From positions 2,080,627-2,144,626 of the forward strand of contig MU004230.1 in the NCBI GenBank assembly GCA_010405405.1: 64,000 nt of DNA. The letters are read 5' to 3'. This document shows, piece by piece, positions 3,279 through 21,667 of this stretch. Made by a program: the position numbers and the translations under genes. The notes under the pieces are model-generated. The model searched no databases. It was given only the letters and a program-made list of their open reading frames with translations, and was not told where the DNA came from. This stretch comes from Microthyrium microscopicum (Eukaryota). Each line of letters starts with the position of its first letter. Within the stretch, counting starts at the first letter, position 1.

Positions 3279-4484
3279 CTAGCCATGCTTGGGCACCCTC
3301 TTCTTCTTGCGACCAGCACAACAAGTAAAGCTACCCAGAATGCTCGCAATGAACAAACACCCTGTAGCAGCCCAAGTCAGGCCCAAGAATCCATCTCCCC
3401 TCGTACTAACCACACCAATGACCGTCGCCAGATCCTTGACCGCATTGTCAACCATGACCGCCGCAGCCGTCACGATAATAGAGACTATAGCGGCCACGAC
3501 GAAGCCCAGCAACGTCAGCACAACCAACCCAGTCCCAGTCACAATCCTCAACTTTTCTGGCCAAATAACCGCAATCAGACTAACCAACGCCGCCAGTCCC
3601 GCAAAGATAATAACAATCACATACAGCCACATCGTCGCATTCAGCAACCCTTCCGCCTTCCGCACCTCATCATCCAACTTTGTCGGCCAATGAATCGTAT
3701 CCAGCGTAACGTTCACCTTGGACAGCCCAGTCTTGTTCAATATCGCCTGCACCGTATCGCCTGGCACCCAGTGGAGATACTGCTCGCACTCTGTCACATT
3801 GCGCTCGATTTTGCTCAATGGATAGGTGGCGTTGGGTACTTCGGTGGGTGTATATTGGCCACTACAGTAGTCTTTGACATGGTACATGTAAAAGTCCTGG
3901 AGGCCAACTTCCTCTGCATACTGCCTAATCACTTTTTCCGCGAGCGCAAATGCTGCGGCGGGGTCAGTGAGGGCTGTGAAGACACCGTTTGCGGCGCCGG
4001 TGATGGAGGTTATTATGCTGCCGGTCTTGTTCTTGAGGTCGTCGATTAGGCCGCGCTCGTCTAGAAGGTTGCGTTCGTGCAGGTAGGCTAGTTCATGGGG
4101 TTGGAGGGAGGGTATGTCGGCGTCGGTGAGGATGTCTTCGAGACGGAGGGGTTGCCAGTCGTTGGTGCTGGTGAGATCGCGTTTGGAGGAGCTGGAGCTG
4201 ACGATGTTTTTGAGGAGGGTGTTTAGGATGGAGAGGAGTTTGGTTTTGTCGTTTTGGAAGGTGGTTTTTACTTGGAGGAGGATATTTTCGCCGATACGGG
4301 AGGTGTTTAGCTGGGCGAATTGTTAGATAGTGTTGTTGGATTGGTTACGGAGAAGACTTACTGCTATGATGGAGTAGTTTGGTGTGTCCATGAAGCCTGG
4401 TTTGTTACCGGCGTATATGCAGAGAAAGGCGAGGATGAATGCGACGGTGCATAGCACCAGCGATGAAATCGCCGCGATTCTCAT
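3279..4484 (-). CDS. SUR7/PalI family tetraspan membrane protein (2 exons, intron 4361-4311)
   Basis: Exon 1 MRIAAISSLVLCTVAFILAFLCIYAGNKPGFM; exon 2 starts LNTSRIG; GLQDFY..H...YC.G motif; three further TM helices; GTAAGT...CAG intron. Confidence 0.85.
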
Positions 4485-10490: not shown

Positions 10491-11430
10491 AATTCACTGG
10501 AGGCGGGGAGACGTGGAAATGTTCATTTTCTGTAGCAGCAACAACTTGGCAGATATATGTAAAAATTATTTGCGGTTACAATAATCAACGCTCTTGCAAG
10601 ATAATATGTTGCACATCTCTTCGAGTTGCGGAATGAATCGTGTCCAGTAACTTTCAGCATGAAAGCCTTCAGTAAATCATATAGGCCTCCTTTGACCATT
10701 GAAATGGTTTTCAATTTTTCTTTATCTATCGCTCAATAGACTGTCATATAAGCTGACAATTGTAAGACTAAATCAATCCTCTTCCACAAACTATAATTGT
10801 ACTACAAGCCCAAGGGCCAAGGACCAATGATAGCAGAGGAATTTAAGTATTGACCCGCTAAATTAGCGCAGCCTCGTGGATGCCACGTGCGTAGATCAGT
10901 TTCAGCCTCATAAAACATCACTTCATCCCGATTTAAAAATATGCTCTCAGCTTCCGCTTGACTTCTGTTTATGAATGGCTTTTTTCGGTGCACTTACTAA
11001 GTTACTAGGCTGATTTGAGTTCAGAACGCGTTTGTATTTGTTCGCCACAATTGTTGGTCATGCTGCAACCTGCTGCAGAGCTTTGTCCAGTATGGTTAGA
11101 GTGAGCACTCTATGCTAGTGAGACTTGAAGCAAGTTTTGAGAGAGAAAGGTCCAAGTTTTAAGCACTGGCATAAAGATTGAATTAATACTAGCGCCGATA
11201 TTTTCTCCCAAAGCAATGATAAAGCTAACATAAATTGTCGACTCCCCTGGTAAATCCTCGCCCATATTGCAAAACAGCATGTTGTCGTGAAGTAACTGGT
11301 TCGCTCGCATAGAAGATCTTAAGTGGTACTATGTTACTATTATTCCTAGACCTATCAAGACCAAAACTCACATCTTACAATAGACCAATCGTAACGTCAC
11401 CCTTGACGCGTGCGTAAATTTCGACCTGCA

Positions 11431-11866
11431 CTACATCAGTCCAATTGTGACGTCTCCCTTTACGCGTGCGTATATTTCTACCTCAACTTCCAGATCCAAC
11501 TCAATCTTGATTTTGAGACTGCTGTCTTTCTCCGCAGGCTTTGGGGGTCGGTCCCGGATGCGGGATTGATGCACTGGGATCATTCGTCTTTTGCCTCTAG
11601 GCATGGGTGGAGGAGCACTTGGTTCGGAGACACTTCCTTCGTCGTATTCGTCATCGTAGTAATCTTCTTGGGGTGGTGGTTGTCGCGCAACTGCATTGTT
11701 GAGCTTTGCAGGCTTTTTGCGACCGCCAACTGGGTTGGGTGAGGCCGTTTCGTTGGATTCTCTATCCATGAGATCGGTGTTACCCGCTCTAAAGGATTGT
11801 GTGTTAGATGGTATTGCGCAACGTTTGGGAATTATCCAACAAGGTGTCGACCTACTCTTGAGACAT
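11431..11866 (-). CDS. Hypothetical protein with C-terminal alternating beta motif (2 exons)
   Basis: Exon 1 MSQE, GTAGGT...CTAAC...TAG intron; disordered acidic/Pro region then SSLKIKIELDLEVEVEIYARVKGDVTIGLM*. Confidence 0.75.
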
Positions 11867-12501
11867 TTTGGGTGCTCTGTGGTAACCGATGTTATCTATG
11901 TCTGCACGTCCAGATGGATATCGTGCTTTTGAAAATGGTTGATGAGTGAAGGGTATTGAAGAAGATGGAGTATTTGAGCAGCGGAATATACAACACTGCC
12001 AGCTATTTATCTTATTCTTGAGAATTAACTCTCGAAACATGACGCGCTTACACTGCACTCTAACAAGCCCAAAGCTCGGAGGCAACCCCGAGAAATCAAG
12101 TTTATTTTGAACCTATCCTTGTAAGTTCATGCAGCAAGGTTACGGTGGCGACTGTCGTGCTTTCAACATGCTTGCATAAGGGCTTATATATGAGGATAAA
12201 GCAGGATTTACCAAAGCAACCCATGAGAAAGATACCAGGTTCTTATTTTCACTCCAGTTTATCAATGGTTACTATTTTCCAAGGTAAATCCAAGCTCATG
12301 ACGTACCATGAAGGTCATATTCTAGCGTTTCGAGCTGTAGGATGCACGGGAAGAACGAGATCCGTGAATCATCTTTCCTTCAACAGCTATTCTCACTCCA
12401 CATTGACTGCTCCAAAACTTACTGGTCCAACAGTTGAGGGCCTTTAGGATTTCTTCCAGCCGCTCCCATCCTCCTCTTATTGCTTTCGTACCTCAAAAAC
12501 C

Positions 12502-13273
12502 ATGGTTCTGGGTATTCTCACTGCGATCGCAGCATGTCCCGCAATTGTCGGAACCACGGAAGCCGTACGCCAAGGTCAGCGGAAAAATTCAAAAGAACAA
12601 CACAGAGGATTAAAGACAAATGTACTGGTTTCTTGCTCCACCGACACCCGACCTGGCAAGGAAGTTAATGGAGGCGCTTTGGTCTTACGGAACAACAAGG
12701 TTGGACACCCTCAAGGGCAATGATGTAGTGTTTGAGCTAACAGATCTACCTCTCTTCTAGATCTATGTCTCGACCCCTTCACCTAGTTATCCAGAAGGTC
12801 GCGATGATGAACATCTCTTTGCTGGATACTTTCTAGCCTATCCCGAAAAGAACTGGGGTCGGCAAGGAGAAGGGCTTGTGTCCACCATATCAGATGACCC
12901 TCCACAATTGAATTGGGTTTATGTTGATAGCGATACTTATGAAGTCAAATATGGATTAAAAGTAGATTCTTTGCCCCATATCGTCGGGCCATGGGATTGC
13001 ACGAGAATAGACAAAAGGATTACTTTGGAAGGCTGGGAAGGTTTCATGGTTGTTCGAGAGGAGCCAGGTGAATGGGCCCTGTATTTTGACAGGGAGGATG
13101 ATGGGCTGAGAGATAAGGTTTCCCCTGACAAAAGAATACTAGAGGTGACAATGGCAAGAAAAGAGAGAAGACAGGAGAAACCGAAACCAGAATCTGATTC
13201 TGAGAGCGAACCTGAACCTGAAAGCGAAGTTGCAACTGAGACTGAACTGGAGTCTGAGAGCAATTCAGACTGA
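12502..13273 (+). CDS. Conserved fungal hypothetical protein (intron 12700-12760)
   Basis: MVLGILTAIAACPAIVGTTEAVRQGQ joins in frame to HLFAGYFLAYP...LNWVYVD..TYEVKYG...GPWDCT...TLEGWEGF...WALYFD; acidic ES/EP tail. Confidence 0.8.
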
Positions 13274-13368
13274 AGCTTTTGAATAAGATAATTCGGTCAT
13301 GATCATTAAATTTCCATAATCATACAATGCTATTTGTACAGTAGTAAACCAAAGCCGTCGAAATGCCG

Positions 13369-13812
13369 CTAATCTTCCATTTCCAGCTCTTCTGCTTCAA
13401 GCGCCAACTGTCGTTTCTTCAAAGCCAATGCTCTCCTCTTCTTCTCTTGAAGTCTGGCCTGTTGCTCTTCCGCAGTCATAGCTTGTGCTTGAGGGGCTGC
13501 TCGTTTCCCTTGAGGAGCAGCTCTTTGTCCTCCTGATCCAACCTAAAATGTTTTATTAGCCACTGGAATTTTTGGAATCAGATTCACGAGTCCAACTTAC
13601 AATTGGCAAGCCGTCGGTTACTCCTCCTACCGTCTTGAGCAGGGGTGAAGTTACTCCGCCTACGATAGGGAGACCTTTCGTAGTATCATCTACAGTATTC
13701 AAAACACTAGAAAGTTAGTGACATGGCCTGGTATAGAATCAAACATGGTTAGGTACCCTCCAAGAAGTCCACCACCGCCATTGTTGTTGCCGCCGCCGAG
13801 AAGTCCAGCCAT
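13369..13812 (-). CDS. Small Gly-rich protein with GLPIVG repeats and C-terminal coiled coil (3 exons; introns 13756-13707, 13600-13543); not in ORF track
   Basis: Spliced translation MAGLLGGGNNNGGGGLLGGVLNTVDDTTKGLPIVGGVTSPLLKTVGGVTDGLPIVGSGGQRAAPQGKRAAPQ...LKKRQLALEAEELEMED*; both introns have GT, branch site and AG. Confidence 0.75.
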
Positions 13813-14933
13813 TGTGATAGATTTAATTTTGAGAGGTAAAAGTGAGTCGTGTGAAGGAGTATTGCTGAAGTACAATGTATTGAATTTGAAGTTAGGATGT
13901 TATGGAACAGAACCTGATCAGAAGCTGGTGCTGACTGAGCTTTTATGTACACGAGTCCTCTACGATACTATGAGAGTGAAATGGTTCACGAATACTAGAA
14001 TCAGGTTTCTCTCCTCCATTGCGTAGCTGATACCTGGATTGTCCCATTCACATTCCTCAAAGTATGTTGTATTCGGCTAGAATGACGTACAAATTCCAAG
14101 GGTCGCTTCATCCTGGAGTTGAATCTTCACCAATTCAGGGTCTAGGGACCTCGTATAAACCCTGTTGTTGCATGGAAGACGGAGTGACCTCCGCGGATTG
14201 TGCAACGTTGGCTGCAGGTCAGGGATTACAAGCGAGGAGAGCTACGCCCCATCGGGGACATTCAACCAGCGTCATTCTTTTGAGATAATGTTGGTTATAA
14301 TGAACTCGAATCATGTTTCCAAAGGCCAGGACAAGGGTGAGTGAGACGAGCTTACTCAGAAATTCATCAGTTGGCAACTTGGCATGAACAAGTGCTGACC
14401 ATTTGAAGTTCTTCATGGTCACTCCAACGCAATAAGTTTAATGAAAGCAAAATATTTCCAAAATCACAACGAGACATGCTTCGTGATAGATTCCGGGTCT
14501 GATCAAGATGCATGCTTGCCTCCTACTATTGACAAAGAATCACTCGATTCTTGGGGAGAAGCTTATAACTTGTCTTGATGAAGCACTGGAAGTTATAAGC
14601 TGTGCCTAAACAATAGCTGCAATACTTCGATTATCGAGAATTACTACAACTATAACTTGATCTGGGAAATCATTATGGTTTGTCAAACTTTCAGCACATT
14701 TGGTCACATGCGGACTAGTATTTCGACAGCACATTTCTTCTTCGTCCATTTTGACAGCAACTTTATATGTTTTGAATTGAGATCCTTTTGTCCTACCCGC
14801 TAGAACATTACAGATCCGAAGCCATGACCTTTACATTTAAGCTATGCTAAAGGTACTAGGACAGTGCTTAATACAATTTGACTTTGCGAATTAGCAGCAA
14901 TGACATGACCACACCCAGTGGCGAGACGAGAGC

Positions 14934-18958: not shown

Positions 18959-21018
18959 CTAATACCTCGCCGTGCCCTCAGGCGTCAACCGCCACGCTCT
19001 AACCGGCAACGCCTGTAATGACCGTACAGTGTTGCGGATATATCCCCAGAACGTGAGCACGCCGACAACAATGCAGAGGATGTTGACGATATAGTATCCA
19101 TCCATAGTGATATTGCATGTTCCACCACCCTGTGTACAGCGAGTCTTGTCTGGCTCGGCAACGCAGGAGAATGGGCTGGTTACTAGAGGGCTCTTGAGCG
19201 TGTCGGAGGCTGGTGGTTTGCCGGGTGGTGTGCAGGAGGCGACGGTTAGCATGTCGATGAGTTTGAGGACGAAGAATTTGGGGAATGTACCGCCTAGGTT
19301 GGAGACGCTGGGGGGTGTTAGGATTGTGATCATGGGGGATTGGGGAGGGGACTTACGTTGCGAGGAGGGTCATGTAGGTTCCGCCGTAGACTGGGTCGGC
19401 TATGCGGGCATGGAAGGCGGATACGGCGACGAACATGACGGTGTTCATGAATGTTGAGAATACATGGCCGAAGATCGCTACGATCAGGTAGCCTATGTTG
19501 ACGCCGCCGGATGGGAAGGACCAGACGATGACTTGGGCGACGAGTGCGGCGAGGAGGCGGCCGGCGAAGGCCCAGGACCATAGCTGCATTGCGCCGTACT
19601 GCGAGGACCATTTTCCAACATAGTAGCCAAGGCCTATTTCGAAGGGGAAGTCAATGAGAACTGTAAGAGCCAGATTGTCTTGTCCGAAACCTTTGTCGAT
19701 GAGTTTGAGGGTTGTTGCGCCGTCATTGGCCTGGAAGCCGATCTTAGCGATGAGATGGACAATGATGAGTGCTTGCACATTTTTGAGCTTGAGAATGCCT
19801 CCCATGACTTTGTAGGTATCCCAGACTCCTTCTTCGTTTTTTGTGAGGTCTTCGCGCTTTAGCACTGCTAGACCAACCGTCACAATCAGATATAGCCATC
19901 CAGATGCCGCAAGAGCGCCCCCAAGGGTAACCAGACCATAGTCCAACGGTACAGCCCGGAACCACTTATTCGCGAAATCCTTCGAATTGAAAGCCAAAAA
20001 GATCGTGGAGCTCAGGAACTGACCCGCCGTCAACCCAACCGTCTGCGCCGTACTCGCATACGACAGATTCTCCTGCGAAAGCAGCGTCAAAGCCCACCCT
20101 ACAACCCATTAGCATTTCCATCCTCCCAATATCAAAGCCGTCCAACTTACCATCAACAGCAATATCCTGCGTCGCACACAAAAACACCAACGCAAACCAC
20201 CACCACGTAAACCCCCAAACATTCGCGCCCCCATTCCCACCCGCATGATTCATCATACTCTCCGCATGTCCACTCATCCACAACATGGCCATACCACTCA
20301 ACGCCTGAATCGGCAAAATCCAACTCTTCCTCCGTCCCAGCTTTGGACTCCATACCGCATCCACAATCGGGCTCCACAGTAACTTCAAACTATACGGATA
20401 TCCAGCCAAGCTAAACACGCCCATCTGCGCATAGCTCACATGCTCTTTTAGCAAAAACGGCACACTCCCCATCGCCAGCCCCATAGGCAGACCTTGCAGG
20501 AAGTATAGCAGGACCAGGAGGAGAAAGTTTCGGCGGTCCTTGTCGGGAAGTTCGGAGAAACCTTTTGCTTTTGCGCCATCGCCGTTTGGAAGCGCGGGGA
20601 TGGGATCGTCAAGGGTGAAGGAGGAGCGGCTGATGAGAGAAGCAGTTGCAGAAGAGCGAGTTTCATGGACGCCGTTGGGGGATGTTGCGTGTTTGCGGGA
20701 ACGGTGCTCGAGGAGCGAGGCGGGCATGGTGGTGCCGGTCGCGTGCCCGTTGGTGTCGTCGGGGCTGCTGGCTTTTTTGCCCATCTGTTGCGCTTCTTCT
20801 ATATCGTCGGGGAGGAGATGGGATGTGTCGGGGAGGAGAGGGAAGGTGTCGGTCTCGATGTTGAGCGCGATGGAGGTTCGGTGGGACGAGGAGGGACGTG
20901 GGTTGAAGGGCGGTTCGTCTTGGAGCGGTGCAGATGATTTATCGAGTTTATTTGGCGTTGAGGGAGAGGAAGAGAGGTGGGAGAGCTCGAGAAAGTCTTT
21001 TGGCGAATGGGGTTCCAT
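18959..21018 (-). CDS. ER acetyl-CoA transporter (AT-1/SLC33A1 family); introns 20150-20099, 19356-19308
   Basis: NFLLLVLLYFLQGLPMGL, YPYSLKLLWSPIVD, RRKSWI, ATQDIAVDGWALT, IADPVYGGTYMTLLATVSNLGGTFP, DGYY; start codon uncertain (21018 or 20784). Confidence 0.92.
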
Positions 21019-21667
21019 ATACAGGTGGACTTTAAAGTATTTGTCCAAACGTGTACCCTAAAGTTTTAAGTGGTAGAAAATGACAGATTTAACTAAGACA
21101 GGTGGCGATGATAGGCTGTTTGGCCGCAATAACCTGTGAAAAGAATGACTGTGAAGAGCTAAGAATCAGTTTGAGCTGGTGAATTCACATTGCTTGCAGA
21201 AAGAAGGCGCAAAAGAATATATACTTGGATATGGCATGCCATGTCAGGCATGGAATGCGGTTGCTATCGTCTATCAAGATGTGTCCCCCAACTCAGCACC
21301 TGCATCGTAGAATAAATGCCCCTGCTTAGCCCTGTCTGCAGCCCCTTGCCCCTTTCCTGCACTCTTCTCTATCAGGCAGTATGATTTCAAGTTACTTGCA
21401 CTGTTTACATCACGAAAAAGAGAGCACATGGTAAGTTGTGTTCATTGACATGTTCATGAATAGGTAACTAGATATACATTTTTCGACTTTTCAGCTTCCC
21501 TTGCTGTCCAGAACCAGATCAGCTTTCAGCAAAACCCAAACTCCTTGCATAAAACCGAGACTACAGGCATTGAAGGGCCTCTGAAATCAGATGCAAAAAC
21601 TCCTTCGCAATGCTATAGTCGTATAATCGTTATCGTAAAATTACATTTCAATGGTGTCGTTGTTGCT

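Follow-up and report, generated by a model that had tools for sequence, protein, structure and literature searches.

Two adjacent genes of Microthyrium microscopicum, which we designate A and B, form an old and tightly linked gene pair of filamentous ascomycetes, and the coding end of gene A is present twice in tandem. Both genes reside in the 64,000-nucleotide (nt) stretch of contig MU004230.1 (positions 2,080,627 to 2,144,626, forward strand) that we analyzed, hereafter referred to as the window. An original prediction, made by a model from the letters of this DNA, had viewed A and B together with the neighboring gene C as a compact three-gene cluster of unassigned function. Our analysis demonstrates that the conserved unit consists of the two genes A and B and not of three, and picks out, from the large number of "hypothetical" genes in filamentous ascomycetes, a unit of two genes with deep conservation. 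Judged by their substitution patterns, both copies of the A tail are under selection at the level of the peptide.

Conservation and linkage of genes A and B

The features of the two genes, numbered by window position, are as follows.

11375..11866, minus strand: gene A (BT63DRAFT_449743, protein P0126, 122 amino acids [aa]); disordered N-terminal half, RRxVPVHQSRIxDRP box and near-invariant amphipathic beta tail
11789..11855, minus strand: 5' intron of gene A, 67 nt, GT..AG; the joint 11788->11856 is present in one X1 and one X2 RNA contig
12502..13273, plus strand: gene B (BT63DRAFT_462311, protein P0006, 236 aa), intron 12700-12760; hydrophobic N-terminus, basic helix, predicted beta-trefoil at residues ~38-205 and acidic tail
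12502..12558, plus strand: codons 1-19 of gene B, MVLGILTAIAACPAIVGTT; hydrophobic and near-invariant, with a Pro in the center; may serve as membrane anchor

RNA evidence stems from contigs of the runs X1 and X2 (the X2 contig at position 11427 is of metatranscriptome origin), and for comparisons between fungi we used 80 metagenome contig loci, labeled L0xx, that were obtained in a scan with a profile of B. The three intron-containing genes of the original prediction, a divergent pair and a convergent third, were all present on the strands assigned to them; RNA joints were found for A and C, and B corresponds to P0006.

An A-type gene was located no more than 2.5 kb from B in 47/47 loci possessing at least 1500 nt upstream of B, a count that does not represent 47 independent lineages, as the loci are metagenome contigs and some of them are near-identical. 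The two genes were arranged divergently in 36 of these loci, with a spacer of 470-1400 nt, and on the same strand (in tandem) in the other 11. Adjacent locus tags for A and B were found in four named genomes as well (SLS60_006001/2, A1O3_03031/2, DPSP01_003428/9, and GP486_003010/1). None of the other open reading frames (ORFs) of the window (>=90 aa, positions 1-32000) matched the 80 loci at 1e-8, which indicates specific retention of the A-B pair and not general synteny. The neighborhood conservation by which the original prediction proposed to judge the cluster is therefore a property of A and B; the genes surrounding them are not shared among the loci. A tree of B built from 60 distinct rows resolved into two clades with a support of 100/99 each: clade i (17 rows) with the tandem arrangement and clade ii (43 rows, including the window) with the divergent one. 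The presence of two arrangements in two supported clades shows that the adjacency of A and B survived a rearrangement. In clade i, the A-type gene (A') encodes a protein of about 65 aa that has kept the tail alone (..KDSSLKIRIELDLEVEVHLTARVQGDITIGLL). In tandem-type loci, the gene upstream of A' codes for 555 aa; the globular part of this protein is rich in Trp and Cys, and its long tail of K, E and Q resembles a coiled coil (L035 6873-8540, minus strand).

The two exons of gene B (12502-12699 and 12761-13273) yield translations that match P0006 at 100%. An alignment of 26 B sequences contains 62 invariant columns, 21 of them in residues 1-38, and the near-invariant N-terminus reads MVLGILTAIAACPAI[IV]GTTEAVRQGQ. 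The hydrophobic leader that the original prediction had placed before a globular domain was readily recovered: residues 1-19 have a mean Kyte-Doolittle value of 1.93, compared to 0.13 for the best other 19-mer outside residues 1-30. Residues 21-40 carry a net charge of +5, and a hydrophobic segment of ~19 residues with such a basic flank conforms to the pattern of a signal anchor, whose membrane insertion is predicted.

For the globular part of B, the Pfam family PF28325.1 (Beta_trefoil_fun; name from Atlas, Pfam 38) is precomputed on P0006 and on 120/120 proteins among the matches listed. We modeled B from an 86-sequence alignment, which gave a predicted local distance difference test (pLDDT) score of 85.5, with values >90 over residues ~38-205; a 26-sequence alignment had given a score of 43.9. 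When this model was compared to known structures with VIA-align, 88 chains reached a Z-score of at least 8, and the best 50 of these 88 were beta-trefoil proteins by their titles (Z 8.6-10.7), with the fungal effector MoErs1 (7vs2_A) as the top match (Z 10.7, root-mean-square deviation 3.5, 142 residues aligned). Foldseek returned IL-18, IL-33, NTNH and Kunitz inhibitors as weak matches (E >=3.5e-3). In the model, residues ~38-205 of B are a beta-trefoil. A sequence search of the PDB with the B profile produced one chance match and no relative among the solved structures; neither Ricin_B_lectin nor any other lectin Pfam match was found at E <=1 on P0006, P0031, and P0077, and the B sequence contains no QxW triplets. 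The B family comprises 569 representatives at E <=1e-3, including forms of 400-800 aa. In such long forms (P0254, P0257, P0258, and others), the N-terminal anchor and the trefoil are followed by P/S/T/Q-rich tails, in which Pfam detects no domain, P0352 excepted; the latter combines VPS28, a methyltransferase and the B domain, and is likely a fused gene model.

The doubled tail and optional intron of gene A

Gene A starts with an ATG at 11866, and its first exon (11866-11856) contributes 11 coding nt. The unspliced ORF terminates at the stop codon 11433-11431 and encodes a protein with the end ..LKIKIELDLEVEVEIYARVKGDVTIGLM, while the public model P0126 removes 11481-11426 as an intron to arrive at the end ..GLL; the exon translations match BT63DRAFT_449743 at 99%. 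The original prediction had recognized gene A and set its limit at 11431; this limit is 56 nt short, as the gene runs to 11375, and the doubled tail had thereby been missed. The N-terminal half of the protein is variable and disordered, and conservation is confined to the last ~50 residues, which follow the pattern RRxVPVHQSRIxDRPxK...KDSSLKIKIELDLEVEVEIYARVKGDVTIGL[ML]. In an alignment of 28 sequences from several classes, all 34 invariant columns, M1 apart, fall within the last 52 residues. The tail consists of a 20-residue beta segment, in which hydrophobic and charged residues alternate strictly, and a short terminal strand. Its beta hydrophobic moment at 180 degrees amounts to 1.09 per residue, a value equaled by 0/2000 shuffles, and the strictly alternating amphipathic motif described in the original prediction is thus genuine. 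Pfam gave no match for gene A, a sequence search of the PDB with its profile gave 0 matches, and an Atlas search returned only clusters of "hypothetical protein."

The last 13 codons of gene A are present as a tandem duplicate, whose second copy is in another reading frame and has its own stop codon.

11434..11472, minus strand: tail copy 1, 13 codons, YARVKGDVTIGLM, stop codon 11433-11431; located within the optional intron
11378..11416, minus strand: tail copy 2, 13 codons, YARVKGDVTIGLL, stop codon 11377-11375; read after splicing only, as in P0126, which ends GLL
11426..11481, minus strand: optional intron, 56 nt; donor GAG/GTAGAA, acceptor TGCAG/GTC (slashes mark the splice points), branch-like CTGAT derived from the Leu-Met codons of copy 1

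The same two-copy arrangement was recovered by a strict pattern search in 24 distinct loci, and in each of them copy 1 ends in ..GLM and copy 2 in ..GLL directly before the stop codon. The copies are 50-80 nt apart, stand in any of the three frames relative to each other and are separated by stop codons; on account of this spacing in all three frames and the intervening stops, we rejected a programmed frameshift or readthrough that would join them. Twenty of the 24 loci were classed as canonical. The donor GAG/GTA is present in 20/20 of these, with GAG preceding the Val codon of copy 1 and this Val codon being GTA. The corresponding Val codon of copy 2 is GTC, GTT or GTG and is directly preceded by AG (20/20), so that an acceptor AG/GTN is available and, in every canonical locus, the intron thus implied (56-80 nt) is as long as the repeat period. 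The Leu codon ahead of the Met in copy 1 is YTR in 24/24 loci, which yields a branch-site-like YTRAT, while copy 2 has CTT at this position in 7/24; the Met in copy 1 may have become fixed to supply the branch A. With copy 1 and its stop codon inside the intron, the unspliced mRNA ends in ..GLM and the spliced one in ..GLL.

Comparison of the two copies across the 24 loci (312 codon pairs) revealed 115 identical, 166 synonymous and 31 non-synonymous pairs, and 24 of the latter represent the fixed M/L difference in the last codon. Differences between loci, expressed per 13 codons, amounted to 6.8 synonymous vs. 0.45 non-synonymous changes for copy 1 and to 7.1 vs. 0.50 for copy 2. The few non-synonymous changes in the face of many synonymous ones argue that each copy is selected as a peptide. 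The nucleotide identity between copy 1 and copy 2 of the same gene (0.772) is practically that between copies 1 of different loci (0.776); since a gene's own copies are no more alike than copies across loci, there is no sign of recent gene conversion. If both copies are selected as peptides, both the unspliced (GLM) and the spliced (GLL) mRNA must be translated.

Variants of the arrangement were found as well. The donor in L055 is a consensus GTAAGT behind ..EVDL, and it is served by two acceptors 52 nt apart, one for each copy; the unspliced form of this lineage has no tail. Further introns within the tail copies are present in L069 and L063. The single tail of A' in clade i ends in GLL, and GLL is thus probably the older end of the A tail. 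Beyond its match to copy 2, an X2 contig at 11427 continues into a single short overhang of 14 nt that encodes ..DLEV(E) on the minus strand, as would fit spliced A mRNA from a related fungus. Among 94 gene A proteins in the databases, which may be predictions, 75 end in GLM and 14 in GLL. Public gene A models disagree at the 3' end (e.g., P0194, P0181, P0225, and P0245) and terminate in GLM, in GLL, in fusions with a partial copy (..ARVKGDVEIYARVKGDVTIGLL) or in readthrough; these conflicts, including the odd P0194, arise because the doubled tail misleads gene predictors.

Promoters, gene C and the wider neighborhood

11867..12501, no strand: divergent A-B promoter region, 635 nt; ATGACG at 12039-12044, ATGACGTAC at 12298-12306
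13369..13812, minus strand: gene C (~111 aa), introns 13707-13756 and 13543-13600; Gly-rich local neighbor, convergent with B
14082..14090, plus strand: ATGACGTAC upstream of C, ~270 nt before its ATG; a further ATGACG at 14270-14275

The most over-represented hexamer of the A-B intergenic regions is ATGACG, which occurs in 21/24 of them compared to an expectation of 7.5 (z 6.1); the leading 7-mers are ATGACGC, ATGACGA, and GATGACG. Each promoter belonging to C or a C-like gene has the hexamer, too (8/8), as does the sequence upstream of A' in 8/9 tandem loci. The 9-mer ATGACGTAC is present twice in the window, in the A-B promoter and in that of C (expected 0.32; 5/100 shuffles reach 2). Such shared elements in the A-B and C promoters fit the co-regulation that the original prediction had assumed. 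The consensus determined for A. nidulans AtfA by chromatin immunoprecipitation sequencing (ChIP-seq) is ATGACGTCA, identical to that of S. pombe Atf1 (PMC12731236). ATGACG represents its first six letters, and as a rule the match extends no further in A-B promoters. The motif suggests that the A-B promoter may be controlled by an ATF/CREB-type factor that acts in the stress and conidial program.

Gene C consists of three exons (13812-13757, 13706-13601, and 13542-13369), and both of its GT..AG introns are removed in one X1 contig with a word depth of 2331.6. Its protein starts with MAGLLGGG.., possesses two GLPIVGG-type repeats and ends in a K/R/E-rich C-terminus; the Gly-rich repeats of the original prediction are read directly from the sequence. 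Pfam gave no match for the C exons, and C exon 3 had no match at E <=10 among proteins >100 aa, including none from the same genome. The stop codons of B (13273) and C (13369) are 95 nt apart (13274-13368), and since the C contig extends to 13333, the two convergent genes come close to touching, or overlap, at their 3' ends. A clear C orthologue downstream of B was found in only 1/48 loci with at least 1.5 kb of downstream sequence (L044). The claim that these families recur together hence held for A and B and is weak for C, which is mostly a local neighbor and not a fixed member of the pair.

A larger cluster of 15-18 kb surrounds the pair in one 16-row sub-clade of clade ii, with the gene order Gly-rich MAGLLG.. 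gene, A2, A, B and one or two DUF3659 genes.

L055 6096-7088, minus strand: A2, an A paralogue (up to 330 aa, disordered) with the end ..KPVQIRLDLNLEMEVLFKAKIKGDVTITFL, 2-3 kb from A
L017 14637-20731; L055 18837-19733; L057 18716-19606: DUF3659 (PF12396) genes, 4-9 kb beyond B
L063 12268-17142; L068 11038-13311; L062 12117-12509: DUF3659 (PF12396) genes, 4-9 kb beyond B

The Gly-rich MAGLLG.. genes, weakly similar to C, are located 5-7 kb from the pair and on the other side than C (L017, L055, L057, L060, L062, and L063). A single comparison of C exon 2 with the L017 gene gave an E-value of 2e-4 for a low-complexity match, and the similarity to the other Gly-rich genes failed in a reverse tblastn at 1e-4. 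A2 is also present in L014, L053, L057, L060, L062, L063, L067, and L068; its tail, ..IRLDLNLExEIFLKAKIKGDVTITFL, is likewise amphipathic, and the tail thus defines a small gene family. The DUF3659 genes matched PF12396 with E-values of 1e-14 to 1e-154 in the six loci and showed weak similarity to Bflower_2. DUF3659 genes had been named as frequent neighbors of these families in other Pezizomycotina; they exist in these six loci of one sub-lineage and are missing from the window, where 0/37 ORFs at 3-24 kb, no regular-expression candidate in the 64 kb and no tblastn match at 1e-4 pointed to this family. The window contains no A2 or C-like match either.

Elsewhere in the window, an ORF at 3282-4322 (minus strand) matches SUR7/PalI (PF06687, E 1.7e-14), an eisosome-type membrane protein seemingly unrelated to the pair, and three ORF pieces at 18962-21057 (minus strand) constitute one intron-split gene for an Acatn acetyl-CoA transporter (PF13000, E down to 2.5e-82).

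Proposed function, rival explanations and comparison with known systems

The explanation that we favor, with middling confidence, views A and B as a linked pair that has a splicing-proof A tail; the pair would be regulated by stress or in spores and would act at a membrane or lipid surface. The two genes would be co-transcribed from their shared promoter under an AtfA/Atf1-like basic leucine zipper (bZIP) factor of the ATF/CREB type, and if control is indeed of this type, A and B would belong to a stress or spore program. The N-terminus of B would fix this protein to the cytosolic side of a membrane or lipid surface; the trefoil of B is predicted to face the cytosol because the N-terminus is followed by a basic flank, the tail is of the K/R/E type and A lacks a signal peptide. 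As to A, its amphipathic beta tail might dock on B or rest on the same surface, with the disordered half projecting. Through its doubled tail, the product of gene A would remain the same regardless of whether the weak intron is removed, e.g., in stressed or dormant cells that splice poorly. Gene C would be a Gly-rich, hydrophilin-like neighbor that has the shared cis-element without being a fixed member.

Besides the redundancy among the metagenome loci, several observations weigh against this explanation. The X1 contig for gene A of the organism's own RNA ends at 11522, short of the 56-nt intron, the splicing of which is predicted, and measured against the consensus usual in fungi, the donor GTAGAN is a weak one. 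No RNA contig covers B in X1/X2. The N-terminus of B was modeled at a pLDDT of ~50 and could equally be a cleaved signal peptide (..GTTEA/V) or a buried strand, and the contact between A and B is putative. ATGACG makes up two thirds of the AtfA motif and is read by other bZIP factors, too; in the window as a whole it is not enriched (24 seen vs. 28 expected). Moreover, contig depth in X1 differs ~500-fold between C (2331.6) and A (4.7); depth is a poor measure of expression, yet equal co-expression is not favored by these values. We saw no experiment or expression series for the A or B family.

Genes A and B might also be adjacent merely on account of a common control region, bidirectional or tandem, with proteins that act independently and make no contact. 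The conserved promoter motif, the short divergent spacer of 470-1400 nt and the putative nature of the contact would all agree with such co-regulation, which we consider possible and somewhat unlikely: adjacency is kept in clade i too, where the tandem arrangement means that a bidirectional promoter cannot be its reason, and the retention of only the tail of A in clade i suggests that what is tied to B is this tail and not the promoter. That A, B and C represent one conserved, co-regulated, non-enzymatic system, as originally proposed, now appears quite unlikely. Synteny of C in L044, the presence of ATGACGTAC in both promoters and the Gly-rich MAGLLG.. genes 5-7 kb away in six loci (E 2e-4 for C exon 2 and L017) speak for such a module, yet C lies downstream of B in 1/48 loci, the other Gly-rich similarity is of low complexity and failed in the reverse tblastn at 1e-4, and those genes flank the pair on the opposite side, in one sub-clade only.

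Residues 1-21 of B could make up a signal peptide, as positions -3 and -1 hold small residues, and many structural neighbors of its trefoil belong to the lectins, protease inhibitors or toxin binding domains; B could hence be a beta-trefoil lectin or inhibitor that is secreted or lumenal and whose signal peptide is cleaved, and A an unrelated cytosolic protein. We regard this as highly unlikely, given an N-terminus that is near-invariant across classes, which is unusual for signal peptides, a domain with one invariant Cys only, a K/R/E-rich tail, the lack of a lectin Pfam match at E <=1, and a strict linkage to A, a protein without a signal peptide, that would be left unexplained. Direct reads of both A isoforms in one organism are lacking, and this would leave room for a single translated tail copy with the other as a passenger kept alike by gene conversion. 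Such a passenger is very improbable in view of the identities of 0.772 (own copies) and 0.776 (across loci), the ~7 synonymous vs. ~0.5 non-synonymous differences in each copy, and the L055 lineage, whose unspliced form has no tail and whose two acceptors each lead into one copy. A HET-S/NWD2-type amyloid-signaling pair, in which the N-terminus of B would template the C-terminal beta motif of A, is called to mind by the adjacency of the genes and by the combination of a short, beta-prone C-terminal motif with a conserved N-terminal segment. We rejected it and give it next to no credence: the A tail and the B N-terminus have no common motif (BLASTP of P0126 vs. P0006 gave a best E of 4.2, outside both of them), B is not an NLR protein and lacks NACHT, NB-ARC or repeat domains, and A and B are highly conserved and not fast-evolving.

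A bolder version of the favored explanation, which we hold to be unlikely as a whole, would see in A and B a surface complex specific to the Pezizomycotina and in the A tail a "frozen proto-intron," both mRNAs of which are translated. The anchored trefoil of B would serve to hold a sheet of ionic self-complementary A tails, or to nucleate it, on a membrane or lipid droplet of spores or stressed hyphae, and the Met and Leu ends might differ in function. The proto-intron would have originated by tandem duplication and have been kept because the cell translates spliced as well as intron-retaining mRNA; if true, this would represent a natural splicing-proof gene design. The doubled tail would constitute a natural case of intron retention rendered harmless by a duplicated coding end, bears on the birth of introns by tandem duplication and on gene expression under unreliable splicing, and accounts for the conflicting public annotations (GLM vs. 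GLL). The original prediction had assumed that these families were functionally uncharacterized, and the full-text literature, searched without model-organism gene identifiers, indeed contained nothing on PF28325, on A or B peptides, or on such a pair or tail; a study under another name may exist.

The beta-trefoil fold, a shared promoter with CRE-like sites and the duplication model are of known kinds, while the pairing of A with B and the two-copy tail appear to be undescribed. Residues ~38-205 of B share the fold of beta-trefoil proteins such as MoErs1 (7vs2), IL-18, NTNH/HA33, Kunitz inhibitors, fungal lectins, and mycocypins; unlike these, B combines a near-invariant hydrophobic N-terminus with a fixed partner gene, and it has no lectin Pfam match. 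With the AtfA/Atf1 regulon, the pair has in common the enriched ATGACG as the start of ATGACGTCA, the ChIP-seq consensus (PMC12731236), but full palindromes are rare in A-B promoters (e.g., L059 and L034) and the regulation proposed here is predicted from sequence. A preprint describes LdrD, a DUF3659 protein of A. oryzae, as lipid-droplet associated (bioRxiv 10.1101/2022.11.24.517872); we take this localization as a lead and not as evidence on A or B. C and the C-like genes resemble LEA-like (late embryogenesis abundant), hydrophilin and DUF3659 genes in being small, Gly-rich and repetitive, and the C contig has a high depth; they differ in that C has no Pfam match and the window no DUF3659.

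The beta domains of apoB are amphipathic beta-strand surface binders, and EAK16-type peptides are ionic self-complementary beta peptides. The strand of the A tail is likewise long and strictly alternating in hydrophobic and charged residues, K being placed at one end and E/D centrally; in contrast to them, the tail forms a short module at the C-terminus of a disordered protein, and a surface-binding or self-assembling role is putative. In one model of intron gain, an exon segment containing AGGT is duplicated in tandem. The intron of A agrees with this model in that it equals one repeat unit, from the GT of GAG/GTA to the AG of AG/GTC, with GT and AG coming from the two copies of one AGGT, and in that splicing restores the pre-duplication reading of A. 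It departs from the model in that the repeat unit includes a stop codon, so that the unspliced mRNA encodes a full protein too, and in that both copies have remained coding over deep divergence, with later lineages using two alternative acceptors.

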